Shown here: piece by piece, positions 35,164 to 48,507 of the stretch
Position numbering within the stretch: position 1 is the stretch's first letter
Layout of the letters: each line of letters starts with the position of its first letter
NCBI GenBank assembly: GCA_019358935.1
Contig: JAHHIK010000065.1
Span: forward strand, 1 to 48,507
Length of the DNA stretch: 48,507 nt
Source of the DNA: Tolypothrix carrinoi HA7290-LM1
GTDB taxonomy: Bacteria > Cyanobacteriota > Cyanobacteriia > Cyanobacteriales > Nostocaceae
Direction: 5' to 3'
Made by a program: the position numbers and the translations under genes
Notes under the pieces: model-generated
Told to the model about the DNA's origin: nothing
Database searches by the model: none
The model's input: the letters and a program-made list of their open reading frames with translations, nothing else

Positions 35164-36705
35164 GTGTCTAAACTAGATTTAGCTTCTATCAGTAAACCAA
35201 AAACTGAGTCTGGGATTAATTCCGACTTGCTCCACCCTGTTACGCCAAACGAGTTTTTACCCCCCATTAGTCGCTGGAGTACTGTTGGAGGAGTTGTACT
35301 CTTAGGGATTTTTGGTGCTGTTATTATGCTTGCAGCCATCTGCAAATATAAAGTCATTATTAAAGCTCCAGCGACGATTCGCCCGACTGGAGAATTGCGC
35401 TTAGTGCAAGCAGCAACAGAAGGAAGAATTAAAAGTATTGCTGTGCAGGCTAATCATGTGCTCAAACAAGGGGATGTCATCGCCACAATTGACGATTCTC
35501 GCCTACAAACCCAAAAAAAGCAACTGCTCACCAATATTCAACAAGCTAGACTTCAACTATCTCAACTTGATGCCCAAATTCGTGCAATAGAAGCACAGAT
35601 AGCAGCCCAAAGCGATCGCACTAATCGTGATGTCACTTCAGTACAAGCAGAACTTAGCCGCAGCCAAAGGGATTTAAAAGACAAGCAAATTAACTCAATT
35701 GCTCAAGCAACAGAAGCGGCAGCCAATTTAAAACAAGCTCAAAAGGAATGGCAGAAAACACAGTTAAAGTTGAAATCAGCTTTGGCAAATTTCAAGTCTA
35801 GTGAGGCTGCTTTCAAAGCAGCAAAGGCAAAACGAGACAGATATCAGCCCTTAGCCCAAAGCGGATCGATTTCAATAGATCAATTCCAAGAAGCACAGCT
35901 AGCAGTTGAGCAACAAGAACAACTCCTAGAGTCGCAAAAAGCTACAGTCCAAGAGTATCGAGAAGCAATTGGGCAGCAACAACAAGCTATAGAAGCAGCC
36001 AAAGCTAGACAGCAAGTAGCATTAATTTCCCTTAATCCCAGCGATGCCAGCGTGGTCATCTCAAAAGAGAAAATTGCCGCAGAAATCGCCACAGGTAAAA
36101 TCAACCTTGCAGGGTTAAACCGAGAAAGAGAGCAAACGATACAACAAAAAGTTGAAATTCAAAAGCAATTGAGCAGCAATACACAACAACTTCAACAAGT
36201 CAATAGAGAAATTACCGATACTATTATTCGTGCCTCTGCCTCTGGCACTATCCACGAACTCAATCTGCGTAACCCTCAACAAGTACTACGCTCTGGTGAT
36301 GTAATTGCCAAAATTGCTCCTAGTGATTCACCTTTGGTAATTAAAGCCTTAGTAGCATCTGAGGAAATTCCGCAAGTAAAAACAGGTCAAAGGGTGGAAA
36401 TACGAGTTGCTGGTTGTTCCTATACCGACTACGGCACTCTTTCAGGGAAAGTCAAAGCCATTTCTCCAGATGCGATACCTACACTAAGCTACGAAAATCG
36501 CACCTCTACTCAAGATGCTAGTAGCACAACTACAAAAACAGGCACTTACGAGGTCACTATTCAGCCTGAAAATATGGAATTAACCGCTGGAAGTCGCAAG
36601 TGTGCTATTCAATCCGGTATGGAGGGGAGGGCAGATATTATTTCCCGTCAAGAGACGGTTTTGACATTTGTGTTACGAAAGGCAAGACTGCTGACGGACT
36701 TGTAA
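35164..36705 (+). CDS. HlyD-family periplasmic adaptor (membrane fusion protein)
   Basis: N-terminal transmembrane segment, IRPTGELRLVQAATEG, a long coiled coil, IRASASG, YGTLSGKV.AISPD, GMEGRADI. GTG at 35164 is the likely start. Confidence 0.9.
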   Translation: MSKLDLASISKPKTESGINSDLLHPVTPNEFLPPISRWSTVGGVVLLGIFGAVIMLAAICKYKVIIKAPATIRPTGELRLVQAATEGRIKSIAVQANHVLKQGDVIATIDDSRLQTQKKQLLTNIQQARLQLSQLDAQIRAIEAQIAAQSDRTNRDVTSVQAELSRSQRDLKDKQINSIAQATEAAANLKQAQKEWQKTQLKLKSALANFKSSEAAFKAAKAKRDRYQPLAQSGSISIDQFQEAQLAVEQQEQLLESQKATVQEYREAIGQQQQAIEAAKARQQVALISLNPSDASVVISKEKIAAEIATGKINLAGLNREREQTIQQKVEIQKQLSSNTQQLQQVNREITDTIIRASASGTIHELNLRNPQQVLRSGDVIAKIAPSDSPLVIKALVASEEIPQVKTGQRVEIRVAGCSYTDYGTLSGKVKAISPDAIPTLSYENRTSTQDASSTTTKTGTYEVTIQPENMELTAGSRKCAIQSGMEGRADIISRQETVLTFVLRKARLLTDL

Positions 36706-36710
36706 TGGGA

Positions 36711-36833
36711 CTAGTGTTCCAACTCATTCTTGATTTCTCTTCCTTCTCCTTCGGAGACGCCAAGGGCGAACGCGTACTTGGCGCCTTTGCGGTTAGTTTT
36801 TTCCCTATCATAATTAATGCGATAGACCACTAG
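36711..36833. repeat. possible MITE-like element of about 120 bp between hlyD and the ABC transporter
   Basis: Bounded by CTAGTG...CACTAG; the internal CTTTGCGGTTAGTTTT resembles the interior of 11731..11824. Confidence 0.4.
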
Positions 36834-36905
36834 ATGAAAATATGAAAAGTTCACCAAGCTGTGCGTGAGCGGTAAGCCAGACGATCCTAAGCTGTTAAAA
36901 TTTCA

Positions 36906-39050
36906 ATGAAATATGCAATTGTTCTCCAACACAGCGAAGAAGACTGCGGTGCAGCGTGTCTTGCCACCGTAGCTAAATCCTATGGACGTAAATTTGCTAT
37001 CTCGCGTATCCGTGAGGCAGTTGGCACTGGGCAGTTAGGAACAACGCTTTTGGGGTTACGTCGAGGGGCGGAAATTTTAGGCTTTAATGCCCGTTCTGTC
37101 AAAGCTACACCTTTGCTTATCGATCGCCTTAACGAAGCTCCTCTACCAGCCATTATTCACTGGAAGGGCTATCACTGGGTTGTTCTACATGAACGCAAAG
37201 GCAAAAAGTACGTCGTTGCAGACCCGGCAATAGGTGTGCGCTATCTTACCCGTGAGGCGCTTACAGAGTCCTGGATGAATGGGGTGATGCTGCTGTTAGT
37301 GCCAGATGAGAGCCGCTTCTACGAGCAACCTAATGACCGGATTGCTGGCTTTGGGCGCTTCTTACGTCGCATTTGGCACTATCGCCACCTAGTTGCCGAA
37401 ATTCTACCCCTAAACCTGGTAATTGGGCTGCTTTCTTTGGCATTTCCCCTGTTGATTCAGGTACTTACTGATGACGTATTGGTGCGAAGAGATACTGAAC
37501 TACTGGTGACAGTGGCGATCGCTGTCTCTGCGATGATTCTCTTCAGTAGTCTGTTGCGCCTCATTCAAGCACATCTGGTAGCTCATTTTGCCCAACGCTT
37601 AGAACTAGGATTGGCTTTAGAATTTGGTCGCCAAATTCTGCAACTTCCCCTCAGCTACTACGAATCTCATCGCAGTGGGGAGATCGTCAGCCGTTTGCGG
37701 GACATTCGAGAAATTAATTTGTTGATTTCCCAAGTAGTCACCACTTTGCCTAGTGAGTTATTCGTCGCTTTGGTGTCCTTGGGGTTAATGCTGGTGTACA
37801 GCTGGCAGCTTACCATCGCGGCGATCGCAGTAGCTTTTCTCATGAGTCTATCAACCATAGTCTTCTTGCCTGCTTTACAACAGAAGACCCGTGATGTCTT
37901 AGTTACTGATACAGAAAACCAAGGACTTTTAGTTGAGACTTTCAAGGGTGCTTTAACCCTCAAAACTACTAATGCCTCACCTCAAGCTTGGGAAGAACTG
38001 CAAAGTCGCTTCGGTTCCCTGGCAAATGTCACCTTCAGATTGTTACATATCAGTATTGTCAATGGCGTCTTTTCTAACCTAATCTCTGAGATGGGTTTTC
38101 TTGCTATTCTCTGTTTTGGCAGCATTTTAGTCATTCGGCGAGAACTTACCATCGGTCAACTGCTGGCATTCAACGGTATGAATCGCAACTTCATAGCACT
38201 GATTACTACCGCAATCAACTTTGTTGACGAGTTCGCCCGTGTCCAAACTGCTACCCAACGCCTAAGTGACATCATCGACGCTAAAGCAGAGGTTCGGGAT
38301 AATGCCCCTCAAGATTGGGCAGAGATTCCTGCTGATGCTGACATTACCTGTAAGGATCTCAACTTCCATCACGTTGGTCGAGTAGACTTGCTGCAAGACT
38401 TTTCTATTACTATCCCTGGTGGAAAGGTGACAGCGCTCATTGGCAAGTCTGGCTGTGGTAAAAGTACACTAGCAAAACTAATTGCCTGTCTTTACACGCT
38501 GCAATCTGGCAATATCCGCTTTGGGCGTTACAATCAATCTGACCTGTCTTTAGATTGTTTGCGTCAACAAGTTATCCTCATACCTCAAGAAGCGCACTTC
38601 TGGAGCCGTTCAATTATCGATAACTTTCGCTTCAGCTACCCTCATGCGACTTTAGAGCAAGTGGTAAATGCTTGTGAGATTGCTGGTGCTGACGATTTCA
38701 TCAGCGAACTACCAGACAAATATCAGACTGTACTGGGTGAGTTTGGGGCAAATCTTTCAGGGGGACAACGGCAAAGGTTAGCGATCGCTCGTGCAATTGT
38801 CACCGATCCACCCGTCCTAATTTTAGATGAATCCACTGGCGCACTCGACCCGGTGACGGAAGCCGAGGTACTCGACAAACTACTGGCACATCGTCAAGGC
38901 AAAACAACAATAATGATTAGCCATCGTCCGAGAGTAATTCAGCGAGCAAATTGGATTGTCCTGCTGGATAAAGGTGAACTCAAACTAACAGGAACCCCGG
39001 AAGAGTTGAGCCAACTTCCGGGGGAACATCGGGATTTTTTGAATCCGTAA
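36906..39050 (+). CDS. peptidase-containing ABC transporter (C39 + TMD + NBD), double-glycine peptide exporter
   Basis: QHSEEDCGAACL (catalytic Cys), HWVV (His), VADP (Asp), GKSGCGKST, LSGGQRQR, ILDE. Confidence 0.95.
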   Translation: MKYAIVLQHSEEDCGAACLATVAKSYGRKFAISRIREAVGTGQLGTTLLGLRRGAEILGFNARSVKATPLLIDRLNEAPLPAIIHWKGYHWVVLHERKGKKYVVADPAIGVRYLTREALTESWMNGVMLLLVPDESRFYEQPNDRIAGFGRFLRRIWHYRHLVAEILPLNLVIGLLSLAFPLLIQVLTDDVLVRRDTELLVTVAIAVSAMILFSSLLRLIQAHLVAHFAQRLELGLALEFGRQILQLPLSYYESHRSGEIVSRLRDIREINLLISQVVTTLPSELFVALVSLGLMLVYSWQLTIAAIAVAFLMSLSTIVFLPALQQKTRDVLVTDTENQGLLVETFKGALTLKTTNASPQAWEELQSRFGSLANVTFRLLHISIVNGVFSNLISEMGFLAILCFGSILVIRRELTIGQLLAFNGMNRNFIALITTAINFVDEFARVQTATQRLSDIIDAKAEVRDNAPQDWAEIPADADITCKDLNFHHVGRVDLLQDFSITIPGGKVTALIGKSGCGKSTLAKLIACLYTLQSGNIRFGRYNQSDLSLDCLRQQVILIPQEAHFWSRSIIDNFRFSYPHATLEQVVNACEIAGADDFISELPDKYQTVLGEFGANLSGGQRQRLAIARAIVTDPPVLILDESTGALDPVTEAEVLDKLLAHRQGKTTIMISHRPRVIQRANWIVLLDKGELKLTGTPEELSQLPGEHRDFLNP

Positions 39051-39091
39051 ATTATAGAGAAATAGCTGTGTTTAGTTAATTCATCCCGCAT

Positions 39092-39328
39092 TTATGCAAC
39101 GCCGTCTAATTCCATATAAAATTTAGAGTTTGTTAAAAATTCAACAGTGCTAACAGTAATATTTCCTCCTGGTGCCTTAAGAGATCCTGTATCAGTAACG
39201 ATCTTGCTGACAACTCCTCCTGACAATAACTCCTCATCATGTTCAGCTAATGGCACAATAAGTTTTGCCTCATATGAGGTAGTCAAGGTAGGCTGCAACA
39301 CATTTTTCTTGGGGATTTGGCGAAACAT
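39092..39328 (-). CDS. double-glycine leader peptide A (38-aa leader, 40-aa core)
   Basis: LIVPLAEHDEELLSGG|VVSKIVTDTGSLKAPGGNITVSTVEFLTNSKFYMELDGVA; RBS AAGGAGTT. Confidence 0.85.
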   Translation of the reverse strand: MFRQIPKKNVLQPTLTTSYEAKLIVPLAEHDEELLSGGVVSKIVTDTGSLKAPGGNITVSTVEFLTNSKFYMELDGVA

Positions 39329-39360
39329 TGTTTGAACTCCTTTGTGGTTTTAAAATCAAT

Positions 39361-39582
39361 TTATTGTTTTGCTTTATTTACCTGACTCAGCAATGAGGGG
39401 AGCGCGATCGCACTAGAAGTCGTGTCACCCGTTGCTGTAATAGTGATATTTCCTCCTTGCGAGGAATTCCCTCCTGACAAGGACTCCTCGCTGTATTCGT
39501 CTAAATCAACAACTATTTCCGAGAATTCTTTAATATTCAAGCTATGCTTTAATCGGTTTTGAATTAGAGACTTGTTAAACAT
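39361..39582 (-). CDS. double-glycine leader peptide B (38-aa leader, 35-aa core)
   Basis: IVVDLDEYSEESLSGG|NSSQGGNITITATGDTTSSAIALPSLLSQVNKAKQ; RBS AAGGAGTT. Confidence 0.85.
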   Translation of the reverse strand: MFNKSLIQNRLKHSLNIKEFSEIVVDLDEYSEESLSGGNSSQGGNITITATGDTTSSAIALPSLLSQVNKAKQ

Positions 39583-39627
39583 ATTTCAACTCCTTTTTAT
39601 ACTGCTTTGAAAAAACATCTGAGCTTA

Positions 39628-39792
39628 TTACTTAATTAGAGTTGTTCTTGACTGGCTTACATGAGTTAATTCATGCGATCTTAATTCATGGGATATTGCT
39701 CCTCCTCGACAATTGCTGGCTTCAATTTCATAAATCTCTCGATATAAGCTTCGATCCAATTGCAATAGCTTTTCTTTAGATTTCGTACTCAT
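39628..39792 (-). CDS. double-glycine leader peptide C (54 aa; not in the ORF track)
   Basis: Hand translation: MSTKSKEKLLQLDRSLYREIYEIEASNCRGG|AISHELRSHELTHVSQSRTTLIK*. Confidence 0.7.
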   Translation of the reverse strand: MSTKSKEKLLQLDRSLYREIYEIEASNCRGGAISHELRSHELTHVSQSRTTLIK

Positions 39793-39852
39793 GATTACTG
39801 TTCAAAAGAATCTTATTAAGGTATTTTATTGCTTCCCCAATTATCAGTGCGA

Positions 39853-39978
39853 TTAACCAATGCAACTGAATGCGTCCAACGCCCCGCCCAGGATTTTTTC
39901 CTGTTGGCGATCGCTCAAGTCTTGCCAAAGTCTTTTAGAAGGGTTTGATGAATTTTGAAGTGGTTGCTTGCGAAACAT
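39853..39978 (-). CDS. leader peptide D (41 aa; not in the ORF track; AG in place of GG)
   Basis: Hand translation: MFRKQPLQNSSNPSKRLWQDLSDRQQEKILAG|ALDAFSCIG*; strong RBS AAGGAGGT. Confidence 0.75.
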   Translation of the reverse strand: MFRKQPLQNSSNPSKRLWQDLSDRQQEKILGGALDAFSCIG

Positions 39979-40105
39979 GGCTACCTCCTTTGTTATTACT
40001 TATACTCTAACTCCAACGCATCCTAACTGAATATATCGCAAATGGTATTACATCAGGGTGGGAACGCTATAACCCTCGTATTGGCGGACTCGGTGGATGA
40101 GAAAT

Positions 40106-40315
40106 TTATAAGGTTAATATCAATGTTCCTCTAATTTTTCCTTCTGGTTCTGGTTGTCTAGCTCGATCCACTTCGTCAATCAATTCGCCTTTATTCATGC
40201 CTCCAGAAAGCTTTTCTGCTTGTTGGTCATTTAATTCTTGCCAAAGCTTTCTTTTCATCGTCACATTTTCTTGGGAGCTAAACTTTGGATTGGTGCAATT
40301 ATTATCTGTGTTCAT
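40106..40315 (-). CDS. double-glycine leader peptide E (39-aa leader, 30-aa core)
   Basis: Start at MNTDNN (RBS AAGGA); KLWQELNDQQAEKLSGG|MNKGELIDEVDRARQPEPEGKIRGTLILTL. Confidence 0.85.
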   Translation of the reverse strand: MNTDNNCTNPKFSSQENVTMKRKLWQELNDQQAEKLSGGMNKGELIDEVDRARQPEPEGKIRGTLILTL

Positions 40316-40328
40316 ATATTCAGTTTCC

Positions 40329-40505
40329 TTATGCGCTAAAGGGATTGGGGAAAAGTAGGACAAGAGCATTATTTGGCGGTTTGACAGATGAGCCACCAGA
40401 CAATGACTCTTCATTGTATTCATCTAGTTCCACCACAATTTTTGACAATGAGGAATTGTTTGTAAGATTTTGTGATGAATGCTTAATTGATTTCTTACCA
40501 AACAT
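40329..40505 (-). CDS. double-glycine leader peptide F (38-aa leader, 20-aa core)
   Basis: Start at MFGKK after AAGGAGTT; IVVELDEYNEESLSGG|SSVKPPNNALVLLFPNPFSA. Confidence 0.85.
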   Translation of the reverse strand: MFGKKSIKHSSQNLTNNSSLSKIVVELDEYNEESLSGGSSVKPPNNALVLLFPNPFSA

Positions 40506-40647
40506 TTTTAACTCCTTAGCTATGTCTAATTTTACAAGTATGATTAGATGCGATCGCTCACGACTAAAAGTAGCTTTGGATGAATCGCCAAGATTATTAG
40601 ACATTTTCTTCTCATGAACAACTTTTTGTCAGCTTTAGTAAATGCGA

Positions 40648-40677
40648 TCGCGATACTCCATTTTTGCGGAGTATCGC
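40648..40677. terminator. hairpin inside the peptide array, between G and F
   Basis: GCGATACTCC-N8-GGAGTATCGC. Confidence 0.45.
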
Positions 40678-40718
40678 ACAAATCACCCTACAAAGTTAGT
40701 TGAATATCTCATTACACT

Positions 40719-40931
40719 TCAGCAAACTTTGCCTGGTTGACAATTCCAGCCAATTTCGTAAGTATACTCCCAATTTTTCCACTTAATCCCATTTGAAGCA
40801 CCACCCCTAACTAGTTCTTGGGTATTTTCACTAAGTTCACACCACAAGTCGTTTGAGAGATTTTCTTTAGAGAAAATATCTTCTACTTTTAGAGAAGCGG
40901 TTTTTTGGGCTGGATTATTTTTTTGTATCAT
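40719..40931 (-). CDS. double-glycine leader peptide G (44-aa leader, 26-aa Trp/Cys-rich core)
   Basis: LWCELSENTQELVRGG|ASNGIKWKNWEYTYEIGWNCQPGKVC; RBS AAGGAGTT. Confidence 0.85.
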   Translation of the reverse strand: MIQKNNPAQKTASLKVEDIFSKENLSNDLWCELSENTQELVRGGASNGIKWKNWEYTYEIGWNCQPGKVC

Positions 40932-41049
40932 TTCTAACTCCTTTCTTTTGATTTTAGTTTTTCTTGTTTACAGTAGAAGCCGTAGCGTGTGCTAGCCAAT
41001 GCCTGTGATGCGTTACGATAAGCGCTACAATTGCGTTGGATGCTACGAA

Positions 41050-41403
41050 TTAAGCGTCTTGATGAAAGTGGCAGATGACAGATCGAACATCGAAGGAATC
41101 GTTTGGGACACCACTGATACGCAAAACATTATTGCCACTGTTTAAAACATTTCCTGCTAGCGTCACAGTTTGTGTCTGCCAATTCCCATCATTGCTAAAC
41201 AAATTTCCGACATCTGTATTGTTAACGAAAACATTGGGGCTGCCAGCAGTAAGCCCCCTTACCATAAAAGAGATGTAGGCAGTACCAGGAGCGTGTCGTC
41301 CTCCAGTATTAAAGCCCTCGGTGATGGTAAGTCCATCAGGCGCTGTTACCGTCGTCTGTTGAGTATCAGCAAGAATCGTGATAAAGTCACTAACTACAGT
41401 CAT
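41050..41403 (-). CDS. small beta-strand-rich hypothetical protein (117 aa), first gene ahead of the peptide array
   Basis: Start at MTVVSDF after GGAG; a pattern like VFVN...WQTQTVTL...L.SGNNVLRI suggests a beta-sandwich. Confidence 0.7.
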   Translation of the reverse strand: MTVVSDFITILADTQQTTVTAPDGLTITEGFNTGGRHAPGTAYISFMVRGLTAGSPNVFVNNTDVGNLFSNDGNWQTQTVTLAGNVLNSGNNVLRISGVPNDSFDVRSVICHFHQDA

Positions 41404-41605
41404 ATTGTTATCTCCACAATGCTTTAGCAATGAGTTGATTTATCCTTTGAAGATGTGGCACGTAATTCGACTTTGGCGATTACCCTCAAGGAGACTCTTC
41501 AACAATTTGCAGTTGCACCCTACCAACAATATCCAACTAGAGACCGATGACAAATTACGAACACATCCGGTTGACTTAATAATGGCAGTAAATGAGCAAA
41601 GAGTC

Positions 41606-41638
41606 TTGCACACTCATGCTGTTTTTGCACAATCTTGC
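41606..41638 (-). promoter_or_regulatory. candidate AraC-family operator (tandem direct repeat)
   Basis: On -, GCAAGATTGTGCAA-AAACA-GCATGAGTGTGCAA (12/14 identical, 19-bp period), immediately after the araC stop and upstream of the peptide array. Confidence 0.55.
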
Positions 41639-42537
41639 TATAACTTGAATAAAGTTTTAGGTGTAACTCCAGTCAATCGTTTGAAGTGGCGATTGAGGTG
41701 ACTTTGATGGGCAAAACCACAGGCTTGGGCAACATCGGCAATACTCATCTTACCTTGTAGCAGTAGTTGCTTCGCCCGTTCTACCCGCTGTTGAATCAAA
41801 TACTGGTGTGGACTAAGACCTGTAGATTGCTTAAATAATCGACAAAAGTAATAGCGACTGATGCCAAGATAAAGTGCGATCGCATCAAGAGAAATCTCTT
41901 GTGCTAAATTATCCTGGATATAATCAACTGCTTTTTTTAGCTGCTGTTGCGGTAAACCCCCTTCATACTCTTGTATAAAGGATTTTCGAGTTGAGTAATT
42001 TTGCAGGAGATGCACAGCTAAAAAGGTTGCGGCTGATTCAGCATAAAGACGGCTACCTGAACCATTAGTTTTAAGCTGTGTCTTCAGTCCCAGCCCAATT
42101 TGATGAATCAGTGCATCTTGAGCGATCAGATGCGGTAGCATTTCATATTGATCCGTATCCAGCAACTCTACAGCATTGCGAGTCAGTAATTCCGGCTCTA
42201 AATTGAGCAAAAGAATGTTGGCATCCTTATCCCAACGGATTGCTTGGGAAGTATGCATCGGACAAAGCCCTACGGCACCGGTAAACATTAACCCTGTTTT
42301 CAGATGCCTATCTAGAGTTCGCTCCACCTGAAAACTCTGACCAAGATTAATGGTGATGACAAATTGTTCCAAAGAATACTCAGGAGTCTCCCCTGGTGGT
42401 AGGAAGTGCTGTTCCAGACTCATAGCGCTCCACATTGTTCTGCCGCTAGAAAGCATAGGCGGTTGGGAGAAAACTTGTGGAAAAGCATTTTCGCCGTTTG
42501 CAACTGTTTGTTGTTGGCTATTGTTAGGTGTTTTCAT
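41638..42537 (-). CDS. AraC/XylS family transcriptional regulator
   Basis: YFCRLFKQSTGLSPHQYL...RVERAKQLL...IADVAQACGFAHQSHLNRHFKRLTGVTP. Confidence 0.95.
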   Translation of the reverse strand: MKTPNNSQQQTVANGENAFPQVFSQPPMLSSGRTMWSAMSLEQHFLPPGETPEYSLEQFVITINLGQSFQVERTLDRHLKTGLMFTGAVGLCPMHTSQAIRWDKDANILLLNLEPELLTRNAVELLDTDQYEMLPHLIAQDALIHQIGLGLKTQLKTNGSGSRLYAESAATFLAVHLLQNYSTRKSFIQEYEGGLPQQQLKKAVDYIQDNLAQEISLDAIALYLGISRYYFCRLFKQSTGLSPHQYLIQQRVERAKQLLLQGKMSIADVAQACGFAHQSHLNRHFKRLTGVTPKTLFKL

Positions 42538-43030: not shown

Positions 43031-43125
43031 AAATACCTATCCACGCTCCCCCTATCCCCTATCCCCTATCCCCTATCAACTATCAACTATCAACTATCCA
43101 CTATCAACTATCCACTATCCATTTT

Positions 43126-47771: not shown

Positions 47772-47910
47772 GTATTTTTGCGTCAGTTATATCTATATAA
47801 AATTTTACACCCAGTTATTAACATTATTGGTAAAAATAGAACAACCTTACATAGTGTGGTTTACTGATTAATAGTGTAATCAAGTAAACATCACAATATT
47901 GGGAGATACA

Positions 47911-48198
47911 ATGTTCGGCTTGGGAATTACTCGTTTGTGTCGTGTGTTGTTGGGTATTGCGATCAGTGCCGTATCGCAGACACTCGCTTTTTGTGTAAAT
48001 TACGCTAATGCTCAAATTACACCAGATGGCACTCTACCCAATAATTCCAATATCAGATTAGAGGCGAAGACTTTTAACATCACTGGCGGAACCCAAGCTG
48101 GAAGCAACTTGTTTCACAGCTTCCAACAATTTTCTGTACCTACTGGTGGCACTGCTTTCTTCAACAATGCTGTTGATATTCAGAACATTATTGGTAGG
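47911..48198 (+). pseudogene. filamentous haemagglutinin/TpsA N-terminal domain gene interrupted by an IS
   Basis: Signal peptide ANA-QITPDGTL, then ITGGTQAGSNLFHSFQQFSVP and NIIGR; similarity stops exactly at the IS end (48199). Confidence 0.85.
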
Positions 48199-48507
48199 TT
48201 GACATCCTCCCCGGCGCGTAAACGCACGGGGATTCCTGAAATCGCTTTCAGGTTTTTCTCTTTCTTCGAGTTCCCTTACATGAGCGCGTTTCCGCATTGT
48301 CCCGCAGAGGGGAATCTCACGCCTAGACTTCAAGTTCGGTGCTAACCACCGTATTTGCCCATTCTTTCAGAGCTAATTTCAAAATATTCAACGCTGCATT
48401 TTCAATTAAAGTCAGCGACTTCCTCGCGGAAGCCGCTGCTCTCCAAAACGGAACGTGATACTTTCGTATCATTCCGCTCCGAGCGTGAAATGGTGCTTGT
48501 CACACAT
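48199..48507 (-). mobile_element. tnpB: right end of an IS200/IS605-family element (tnpB 3' end plus probable omegaRNA region); continues beyond the window
   Basis: On -, the TnpB tail ENAALNILKLALKEWANTVVSTELEV* (48403-48323), a subterminal hairpin ATCCCCGTGCGTTTACGCGCCGGGGAGGAT and a terminal TCAA. Confidence 0.8.
48405..48507 (-). ncRNA. 3' end of a group II intron (domains V and VI)
   Basis: 34-nt domain V GAGCGGAATGATACGAAAGTATCACGTTCCGTTT (AGC triad, GAAA loop, 2-nt bulge), then a domain VI-like stem CAGCGGCTTC/GAAGTCGCTG followed by ACTTTAAT (AY end). Confidence 0.85.

Follow-up and report, generated by a model that had tools for sequence, protein, structure and literature searches.

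Cyanobacterial arrays of double-glycine precursors whose cores carry short copies of conserved proteins

The precursor array described here comprises seven small open reading frames (ORFs), A to G, at 39092-40931 on the minus strand of contig JAHHIK010000065.1 of the cyanobacterium Tolypothrix carrinoi HA7290-LM1, the whole stretch of which (48,507 nucleotides) is referred to as the window. All seven ORFs encode a leader that ends in a double glycine (GG), followed by cores of 40, 35, 23, 9, 30, 20 and 26 amino acids, respectively, and four of these cores (E, F, B and A) clearly copy, judged by their sequences, short stretches of other proteins. A preliminary description, made from the DNA letters, had claimed that a constant leader is joined here to cores assembled from one or two segments of conserved, mutually unrelated proteins, and this central claim withstood comparison with shuffled and reversed controls. 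The co-oriented GG-leader ORFs were likewise present as reported, except that the leader of precursor D ends in ILGG and not in AG, and that the AAGGAG ribosome-binding site (RBS) ascribed to most of them precedes five of the seven (A, B, D, F and G), E having AAGGA and C none. The minus-strand order is an AraC-family regulator gene, a tandem repeat, a DUF7383-like gene and then precursors G, F, E, D, C, B and A, and genes for an HlyD adaptor and a C39-peptidase ATP-binding cassette (ABC) exporter face the array on the plus strand. The locus is very probably an AraC-linked operon of unmodified double-glycine precursors with modular, mosaic cores, the export of which is predicted.

Each core of the window was scored against the 11,778 six-frame ORFs of the host genome together with 300 shuffles, the counts below being the shuffles that reached the real score, and the source names of matched pieces were checked with Pfam. 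In precursor E (40106-40315), core residues 1-10 correspond to the HU N-terminus (40169-40198), as had been proposed, and residues 13-30 to the loop of ATP synthase subunit c (AtpH; 40109-40162; 16/18 identical), with 0/300 shuffles for each half; that E joins two snippets was thus correctly seen for HU, but the AtpH loop had been overlooked. Core E also matches subunit c in NCBIfam (E 1.7e-5) and c-ring chains in the PDB (E 7e-4), and longer HU copies than that of E are found in P0006, P0007 and P0009. Core residues 9-18 of precursor F (40329-40505), which had been likened to an FPNPF motif of type IX secretion C-terminal domains, are instead the C-terminus of AtpH (40338-40367), with 9/10 residues identical to the host protein (0/300 shuffles) and 10/10 in L031, a locus of the same genus. 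In precursor B (39361-39582), the predicted type IV pilin helix was recovered at core residues 20-35 (39364-39411), which share 12/16 residues with the host's own pilin (0/300 shuffles); the haemagglutinin repeats proposed for A and B are only suggestive, the part in B being reached by 24/300 shuffles, which is not significant. Precursor A (39092-39328) contains a prephenate-dehydrogenase-like motif (core residues 3-15), a GGNIT piece and the N-terminus of a contractile-injection tube (core residues 25-36, 39107-39142). The whole core was reached by 4/300 shuffles and residues 1-22, with the prephenate dehydrogenase motif, by none; the latter piece (residues 3-15) was seen in no other genus. 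The tube piece, already noted in the preliminary description, matches gp19-like injection tube N-termini of relatives at 39.3 bits, the best of 1000 shuffles scoring 25.0 in this small targeted set of 17 chosen ORFs. A TIGR02241 tube gene is absent from the host genome (99.65% complete) and present in 31 of 40 family members.

The remaining three cores are less informative. Precursor C (39628-39792), which has an atypical leader, carries the HELTH motif of the extracellular contractile injection system (eCIS) core domain (DUF4157; 39643-39690), as had been claimed; the match to Pfam eCIS_core is weak (E 0.007, under the cut-off), the core is reached by 48/300 shuffles in the own-ORF test, and no protein of the host genome exceeds the eCIS_core cut-off. 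A histidine-kinase motif as the source of C was rejected at the same 48/300 shuffles. Precursor C is kept in L031, where it lacks a 15-nt duplication. Precursor D (39853-39978) holds an LDAF motif that is not significant alone (184/300 shuffles); it may be the remnant of a phycobiliprotein beta N-terminus module, which occurs in full in P0028 and L080 and fits the family better than Hcp, the other candidate source. D is probably decaying, and its counterpart in L031 is frameshifted by a 28-nt deletion. No source was found for the Trp-rich core of precursor G (40719-40931; two Cys; 195/300 shuffles) in the PDB, in longer proteins or in 301 phylum genomes, which gave 3 weak matches; G has one relative, P0046, and is absent from L031.

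An exporter search fetched 77 named loci and 20 more regions, in which precursors were recovered with a leader profile. Nineteen loci were labelled mosaic by eye before the tests (L051 and L065 were dropped, as their arrays duplicate counted ones), and their cores were compared with the ORFs of the Tolypothrix carrinoi genome at a threshold of 32 bits or more, with shuffled, reversed and other-family cores as controls. Matches to this proteome were found for 52 of 135 mosaic-locus cores, which include close relatives and hence are not independent, compared with 17/1350 shuffled and 0/135 reversed cores; 6/108 cores of other GG loci matched, all six through their own precursor family. The excess recurred by two independent routes, in profile matches of protein representatives, which overlap in part with the loci (21/53 versus 5/530 shuffles), and in loci fished by the DNA repeat (9/21 versus 1/210 shuffles; L196 and L202 are duplicates). 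In NCBIfam, 20 of 128 cores matched at E 0.01 or less, with about 1 expected, and the families were subunit c, PsaA/B (best 8e-9), PsaE, plastocyanin, porin, EF-Tu, S10, PII, thioredoxin, Hcp and H-X9-DG; no bacteriocin family was found among the same 128 cores in NCBIfam and Pfam (E up to 0.2). The expectation that homologous arrays would be enriched in conserved-motif cores and would vary was thus borne out, with many more pieces in changing combinations. In the databases these precursor genes are labelled hypothetical, apart from one that bears the erroneous name ribosomal protein S10.

Of 60 matched pieces, 57 come from 13 families (AtpH, 16; porins, 13; pilin, PsaA/B/D, thioredoxin, S10, PII, plastocyanin, EF-Tu, HU and phycobiliprotein beta). 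The pieces are copies of 8-20 residues from conserved stretches of very abundant cyanobacterial proteins and of contractile-injection parts; many cores hold two of them, joined by a Ser/Thr-rich linker. Some 25 modules were distinguished, drawn from at least 13 families. An assigned module is held by 126 of 200 distinct cores and two or three by 47, in 24 pairings, counts that are descriptive only because the module patterns were written after the cores had been seen; the AtpH loop and the porin coiled coil have four partners each. Native ends are largely respected: 11/13 C-terminal source pieces end the core and 5/9 N-terminal ones start it. The cores of L072 and L075 consist only of the last 10 AtpH residues, and an L055 core begins with an 18-residue match to the EF-Tu N-terminus (E 4e-4). 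Hcp pieces occur in L052 (E 0.0045) and L032 (E 0.068), and L069 and L088 copy tube and sheath motifs. The sources are not mainly surface structures; they are mostly the most abundant cyanobacterial proteins, many of them cytoplasmic or thylakoid, and the accessible part of a Synechocystis study (PMC6391073) places photosystem, phycobilisome, EF-Tu, ribosomal, PII and plastocyanin proteins among the most abundant. In an RNA check, no RNA holder was listed. Two recurring modules had no source in the PDB, and one of them also had none in 151 order genomes, a search that had no positive control. Recurring modules without a source in L060, L064, L071, L052 and L055 include patterns such as GCLAWS, GKCEVG, FWGVRT, GPTAV and GCDPGTCC.

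The age of the pieces was assessed from silent sites. In the window, the codon of the host gene is shared at 24 of 54 identical residues, with 19 expected. Same-codon counts against own and foreign sources were 21/118 versus 293/1185 for the AtpH C-terminus, 9/31 versus 32/90 for PsaB and 22/60 versus 115/300 for PsaA; only the AtpH loop leans to its own source (29/59 versus 231/580). The AtpH loop of E shares 11/16 codons with the host gene (about 6 expected; 39/45 nt, E 0.004), and it scores 10/16 against the atpH of another genus too. Across genera the pieces are 79-95% identical with a same-codon share of 40-61%, values that are partly circular because the rows were picked by motif. In 16 hand-paired orthologous genes, dN/dS was 0.22 for the pieces, 0.29 for the leaders and 0.53 for the rest of the core, a pattern that suggests that the genes are translated and that the likeness is kept at the protein level. 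Since silent sites match at about the chance level and the same modules recur in distant genera, the pieces do not appear to be recent captures but are best read as old mimics kept by purifying selection. Recent capture from the host's own genes is unsupported, the AtpH loop of E being the sole exception, and ongoing capture of a kind resembling integrons or clustered regularly interspaced short palindromic repeats (CRISPR) was rejected, as recent source copies and a recurring recombinase are lacking and the repeats are only leader-coding; no recurring integrase or reverse transcriptase was found over 22 loci (40 neighbours scanned). The simplest origin would be a long-ago capture of gene fragments. 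A HIP1 octamer (39404-39411) marks the left boundary of the pilin piece of B, and likewise in four other loci and in the host pilin gene. HIP1 was dismissed as a capture site: 5/8 core HIP1 sites mark the pilin piece, but cores show no enrichment of HIP1. In L031, A, B, C, E and F are retained, and its broken D and replaced G indicate that the arrays still turn over.

The AraC-family regulator is encoded at 41638-42537 on the minus strand (HTH_18 E 2e-27), and a tandem direct repeat with a 19-bp period, a candidate AraC operator, starts at its stop codon (41605-41640, minus strand). AraC genes were found in 13 of the 22 loci, and all 11 partner AraCs are closer to the window AraC (45-93%) than to its paralogues in the host genome, suggesting an AraC dedicated to the array. 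The core motif of the repeat lies downstream of 10 of 12 AraC genes, compared with at most 3 in shuffles, and its sites number 42 in 298 kb of clade loci versus 12 in 999 kb of other loci; the repeat occurs in 6 of 401 phylum genomes and in no viral contig. The tandem repeat is taken as the predicted AraC operator. In L059 (728-10648), a copy of it precedes most of the individual peptide genes that flank the exporter on either side.

The reported export genes were confirmed, together with AraC, by domain matches and catalytic residues. The HlyD-family adaptor (35164-36705, plus strand; Pfam HlyD_3 E 6e-20, TIGR01843) is followed by a short-type C39 peptidase-containing ABC transporter (PCAT) of 714 amino acids (36906-39050, plus strand; Peptidase_C39, ABC_membrane and ABC_tran, without CAP_ED), which keeps Cys14, His90, Asp106 and the Walker A and signature motifs. 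From family knowledge, the C39 domain would cleave after GG, and the PCAT would export the cores together with HlyD. The exporter is below the NHLP cut-off (TIGR03796, 420 bits versus 853), and the seven precursors gave no NHLP or Nif11 leader match (E up to 1). The stated lack of an enzyme that modifies ribosomally synthesized and post-translationally modified peptides (RiPPs) was upheld for 30-48.5 kb of the window (ORF list; 13 ORFs domain-scanned). Over 22 loci, only the exporter, HlyD (15) and AraC (13) recur widely; no recurring immunity-like gene appeared among ORFs of 95 amino acids or more (neighbour clustering), and there is no recurring modifying enzyme, a GNAT acetyltransferase in 2 loci and a PatG-like protease in 1 being found among 40 scanned neighbours. 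In a FastTree phylogeny, the exporters of 18/19 mosaic loci fall into one 23-row clade (support 100), with L036 outside; five clade rows have no detected peptides, and four of these lie on contigs that are short or cut. Genera among the carriers include Atlanticothrix, Microcoleus, Tychonema, Allocoleopsis, Leptolyngbya (plasmid), Calothrix, Thainema and Spirulina. The system is rare and patchy across families, which suggests that it may have spread horizontally.

The export chassis is of a known type and the cargo appears to be of a new kind. In the accessible part of their description, group III cyanobacterial bacteriocin clusters combine a short C39-ABC exporter with HlyD and dense arrays of GG precursors without LanM (Wang, Fewer and Sivonen, 2011; PMC3140520), all of which the window locus shares; unlike group III as described there, the window locus has cores that copy housekeeping proteins. 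Searched by word, the full text of that paper makes no mention of AraC, mimic or immunity, and its five supplements contain none of six module motifs; a literature search from which subscription journals were mostly missing gave no earlier description of such cargo. The leader type is shared with the CTB family bacteriocins (NF038167), of which D and G match the leader at E 0.1 and 0.01, but their scores (12.9 and 15.8, cut-off 32) involve the leader only and fall short of membership. Sister exporters accompanied by CTB, crystallin-domain or TxKYPSD GG precursors are 63-72% identical and form separate clades. GG precursors with repeated TxKYPSD units, which we take to be microviridin-like, lie beside the sister exporters in L073, L074, L079, L091, L094, L098 and L106. 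The window-type loci differ from those of modified RiPPs (lanthipeptide, YcaO, radical SAM, cyanobactin) in having no conserved modifying enzyme in 22 loci, and from class II bacteriocins in that their cores are neither cationic and amphipathic (mean net charge +0.9) nor of a known family. Short conserved housekeeping pieces are read as cues in the case of microbe-associated molecular pattern epitopes such as elf18 and of enterococcal pheromone and inhibitor peptides; these are released by cleavage of the parent protein or imitate a single ligand, whereas here separate genes encode many mimics. Exported and processed peptide signals exist in filamentous cyanobacteria, as PatX illustrates in the accessible part of its description (PMC12756182).

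These comparisons bear on what the peptides might do. In the reading preferred here, AraC would bind the tandem repeat and switch the operon on, the C39 domain would cut after GG, and the PCAT and HlyD would export the cores, the mixture of which would pass for cell debris in the producer's surroundings. As a set of epitopes, it would bind to any system that detects or captures pieces of lysed cyanobacteria, and would trigger or jam the receptors concerned. Candidate receivers would be the alarm receptors of neighbouring filaments and the pattern receptors of grazers, predators or hosts. That the peptides are secreted debris mimics acting on outside receptors is plausible, if short of probable, and the wider proposal that mat- and crust-forming cyanobacteria carry a mobile, inducible and combinatorial library of secreted epitope mimics, covering both their own core proteome and injection machines, in effect a counterfeit lysate that would set off or blind receptors for cyanobacterial debris, is advanced just as tentatively. 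A and C copy proteins absent from the host genome (the tube, and eCIS_core over the cut-off), which is counted in favour of debris mimicry. Several observations weigh against it: 83 of 135 cores have no match at 32 bits; the copied stretch ranks at the 71st-89th percentile of conservation in porins but at the 58th in thioredoxin and the 46th in phycobiliprotein paralogues; and no RuBisCO or D1 piece is among the matches listed, so the repertoire does not simply follow abundance. One receptor could hardly read about 25 modules, so that the receiver must have many; the reading derives from sequence, with a hypothetical receptor; and an Ala-to-Pro change inside the copied piece of both E and F, with D broken in L031, suggests that the window copy may be relaxing. 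G and the Cys-pair family resemble ordinary bacteriocins, and mimics may share the arrays with peptides of that kind.

Action as dominant-negative toxins, which competing cyanobacteria would take up and which would occupy interfaces or poison the assembly of the c-ring, photosystem I, pili, porins, HU dimers or injection tubes, is rather unlikely. Many pieces, such as the AtpH polar loop, the PsaA/B iron-sulphur loop, the pilin helix and the porin C-terminal strand, are presumably interface or assembly elements, as toxins would require, and a bacteriocin-type exporter and a hydrophobic tail in 31/135 cores would suit them. In the accessible part of Savinov et al. (2022; PMC9245647), protein fragments that, like these pieces, reproduce short conserved segments of essential proteins are inhibitory to the parent proteins in Escherichia coli, but susceptibility falls with target abundance, one ribosomal protein being an exception that favours the toxin account, and those fragments are engineered, intracellular and weakest against abundant proteins, whereas the library considered here is natural and predicted to be exported. 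Abundant source proteins, good debris markers and poor targets of inhibitory fragments, hence favour epitopes over toxins; the producer also has the same targets, no common uptake motif is seen, and thylakoid targets would be hard to reach. Near-identity to self and the lack of a recurring immunity gene likewise fit epitopes for outside receptors better. Peptides that soak up enemy binders (receptor-binding proteins of phages and injection systems, proteases or toxins) without signalling would need no immunity, being identical to self, and pilin, porin, haemagglutinin-like and CIS/Hcp pieces are common; this use is nevertheless improbable, as internal proteins (AtpH, PsaA/B/D, EF-Tu, HU, PII, thioredoxin), which outside binders would not meet on live cells, supply about half of the matched pieces, and in PHROGs 1 of 80 cores matched at E 0.07 and none below. 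Similarly improbable are ordinary membrane-active class II bacteriocins or signal peptides made from recycled gene scraps, with source likeness reflecting ancestry only: the exporter type is a known one, G-type and Cys-pair cores have no source and 21/135 cores hold two or more Cys, but net charge is low, the residue identity of pieces exceeds their same-codon share (with the partial circularity mentioned), and the pieces track the source sequence, not merely its hydrophobicity, with boundaries that respect native termini. Fortuitous similarity, or a neutral accumulation of captured fragments, might be read from the decay of D and the clade loci without peptides, but is very improbable given the replicated excess over shuffled and reversed cores and the low dN/dS of the pieces.

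Whatever the target, dozens of separate genes kept by selection, whose only content is short housekeeping or injection-tube copies behind an export leader, would amount to natural peptide mimicry on a proteome-wide scale. As cues, the peptides would provide ligands with which the sensing of cyanobacterial lysis could be traced; as inhibitors, they would mark evolution-tested weak spots of the photosynthetic machinery. A true counterfeit lysate would imply an unknown sensing system for fragments, with the conserved modules as a list of its ligands. Being short and unmodified, the peptides can be synthesised at low cost, and several of the carriers are strains in culture, which makes these ideas directly testable.

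Further features of the arrays were recorded. The DUF7383-like small protein (41050-41403, minus strand; Pfam E 0.003, Atlas 0.96) is the first gene after the repeat and has no GG leader; it is found also in L031 and L196/L202, in 3 distinct loci only, and hence is not general. In two mosaic loci, a GNAT acetyltransferase beside HlyD (L055:3916-4437 and L068:359-979) could acetylate core N-termini. Related genes for 670-695 amino acids lie inside arrays (L054:9294-11309, L054:13008-15092 and L055:9874-11958), one with eCIS_core and peptidoglycan-binding domains. The plasmid-borne array of L069 (1399-6940) has cores that copy CIS tube, sheath, CIS13 and H-X9-DG motifs, and a gene for a 1198-amino-acid WD40 protein stands between array and exporter. 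In the window, a 54-bp stretch between the exporter and peptide A (39050-39103) matches 13 cyanobacterial plasmids (82-100%), twice with IS1 transposases adjoining the plasmid copy, and L031 has an insertion of about 220 bp at the equivalent position; the plasmid search gave no match to the array. The neighbours and relatives of the locus are those of a filamentous cyanobacterium. A two-partner secretion (TPS)/haemagglutinin N-terminal domain (47899-48345; E 6e-18) ends after about 105 residues near the contig end, and heptamer tandem repeats occur at 43052-43121, upstream of the next gene.

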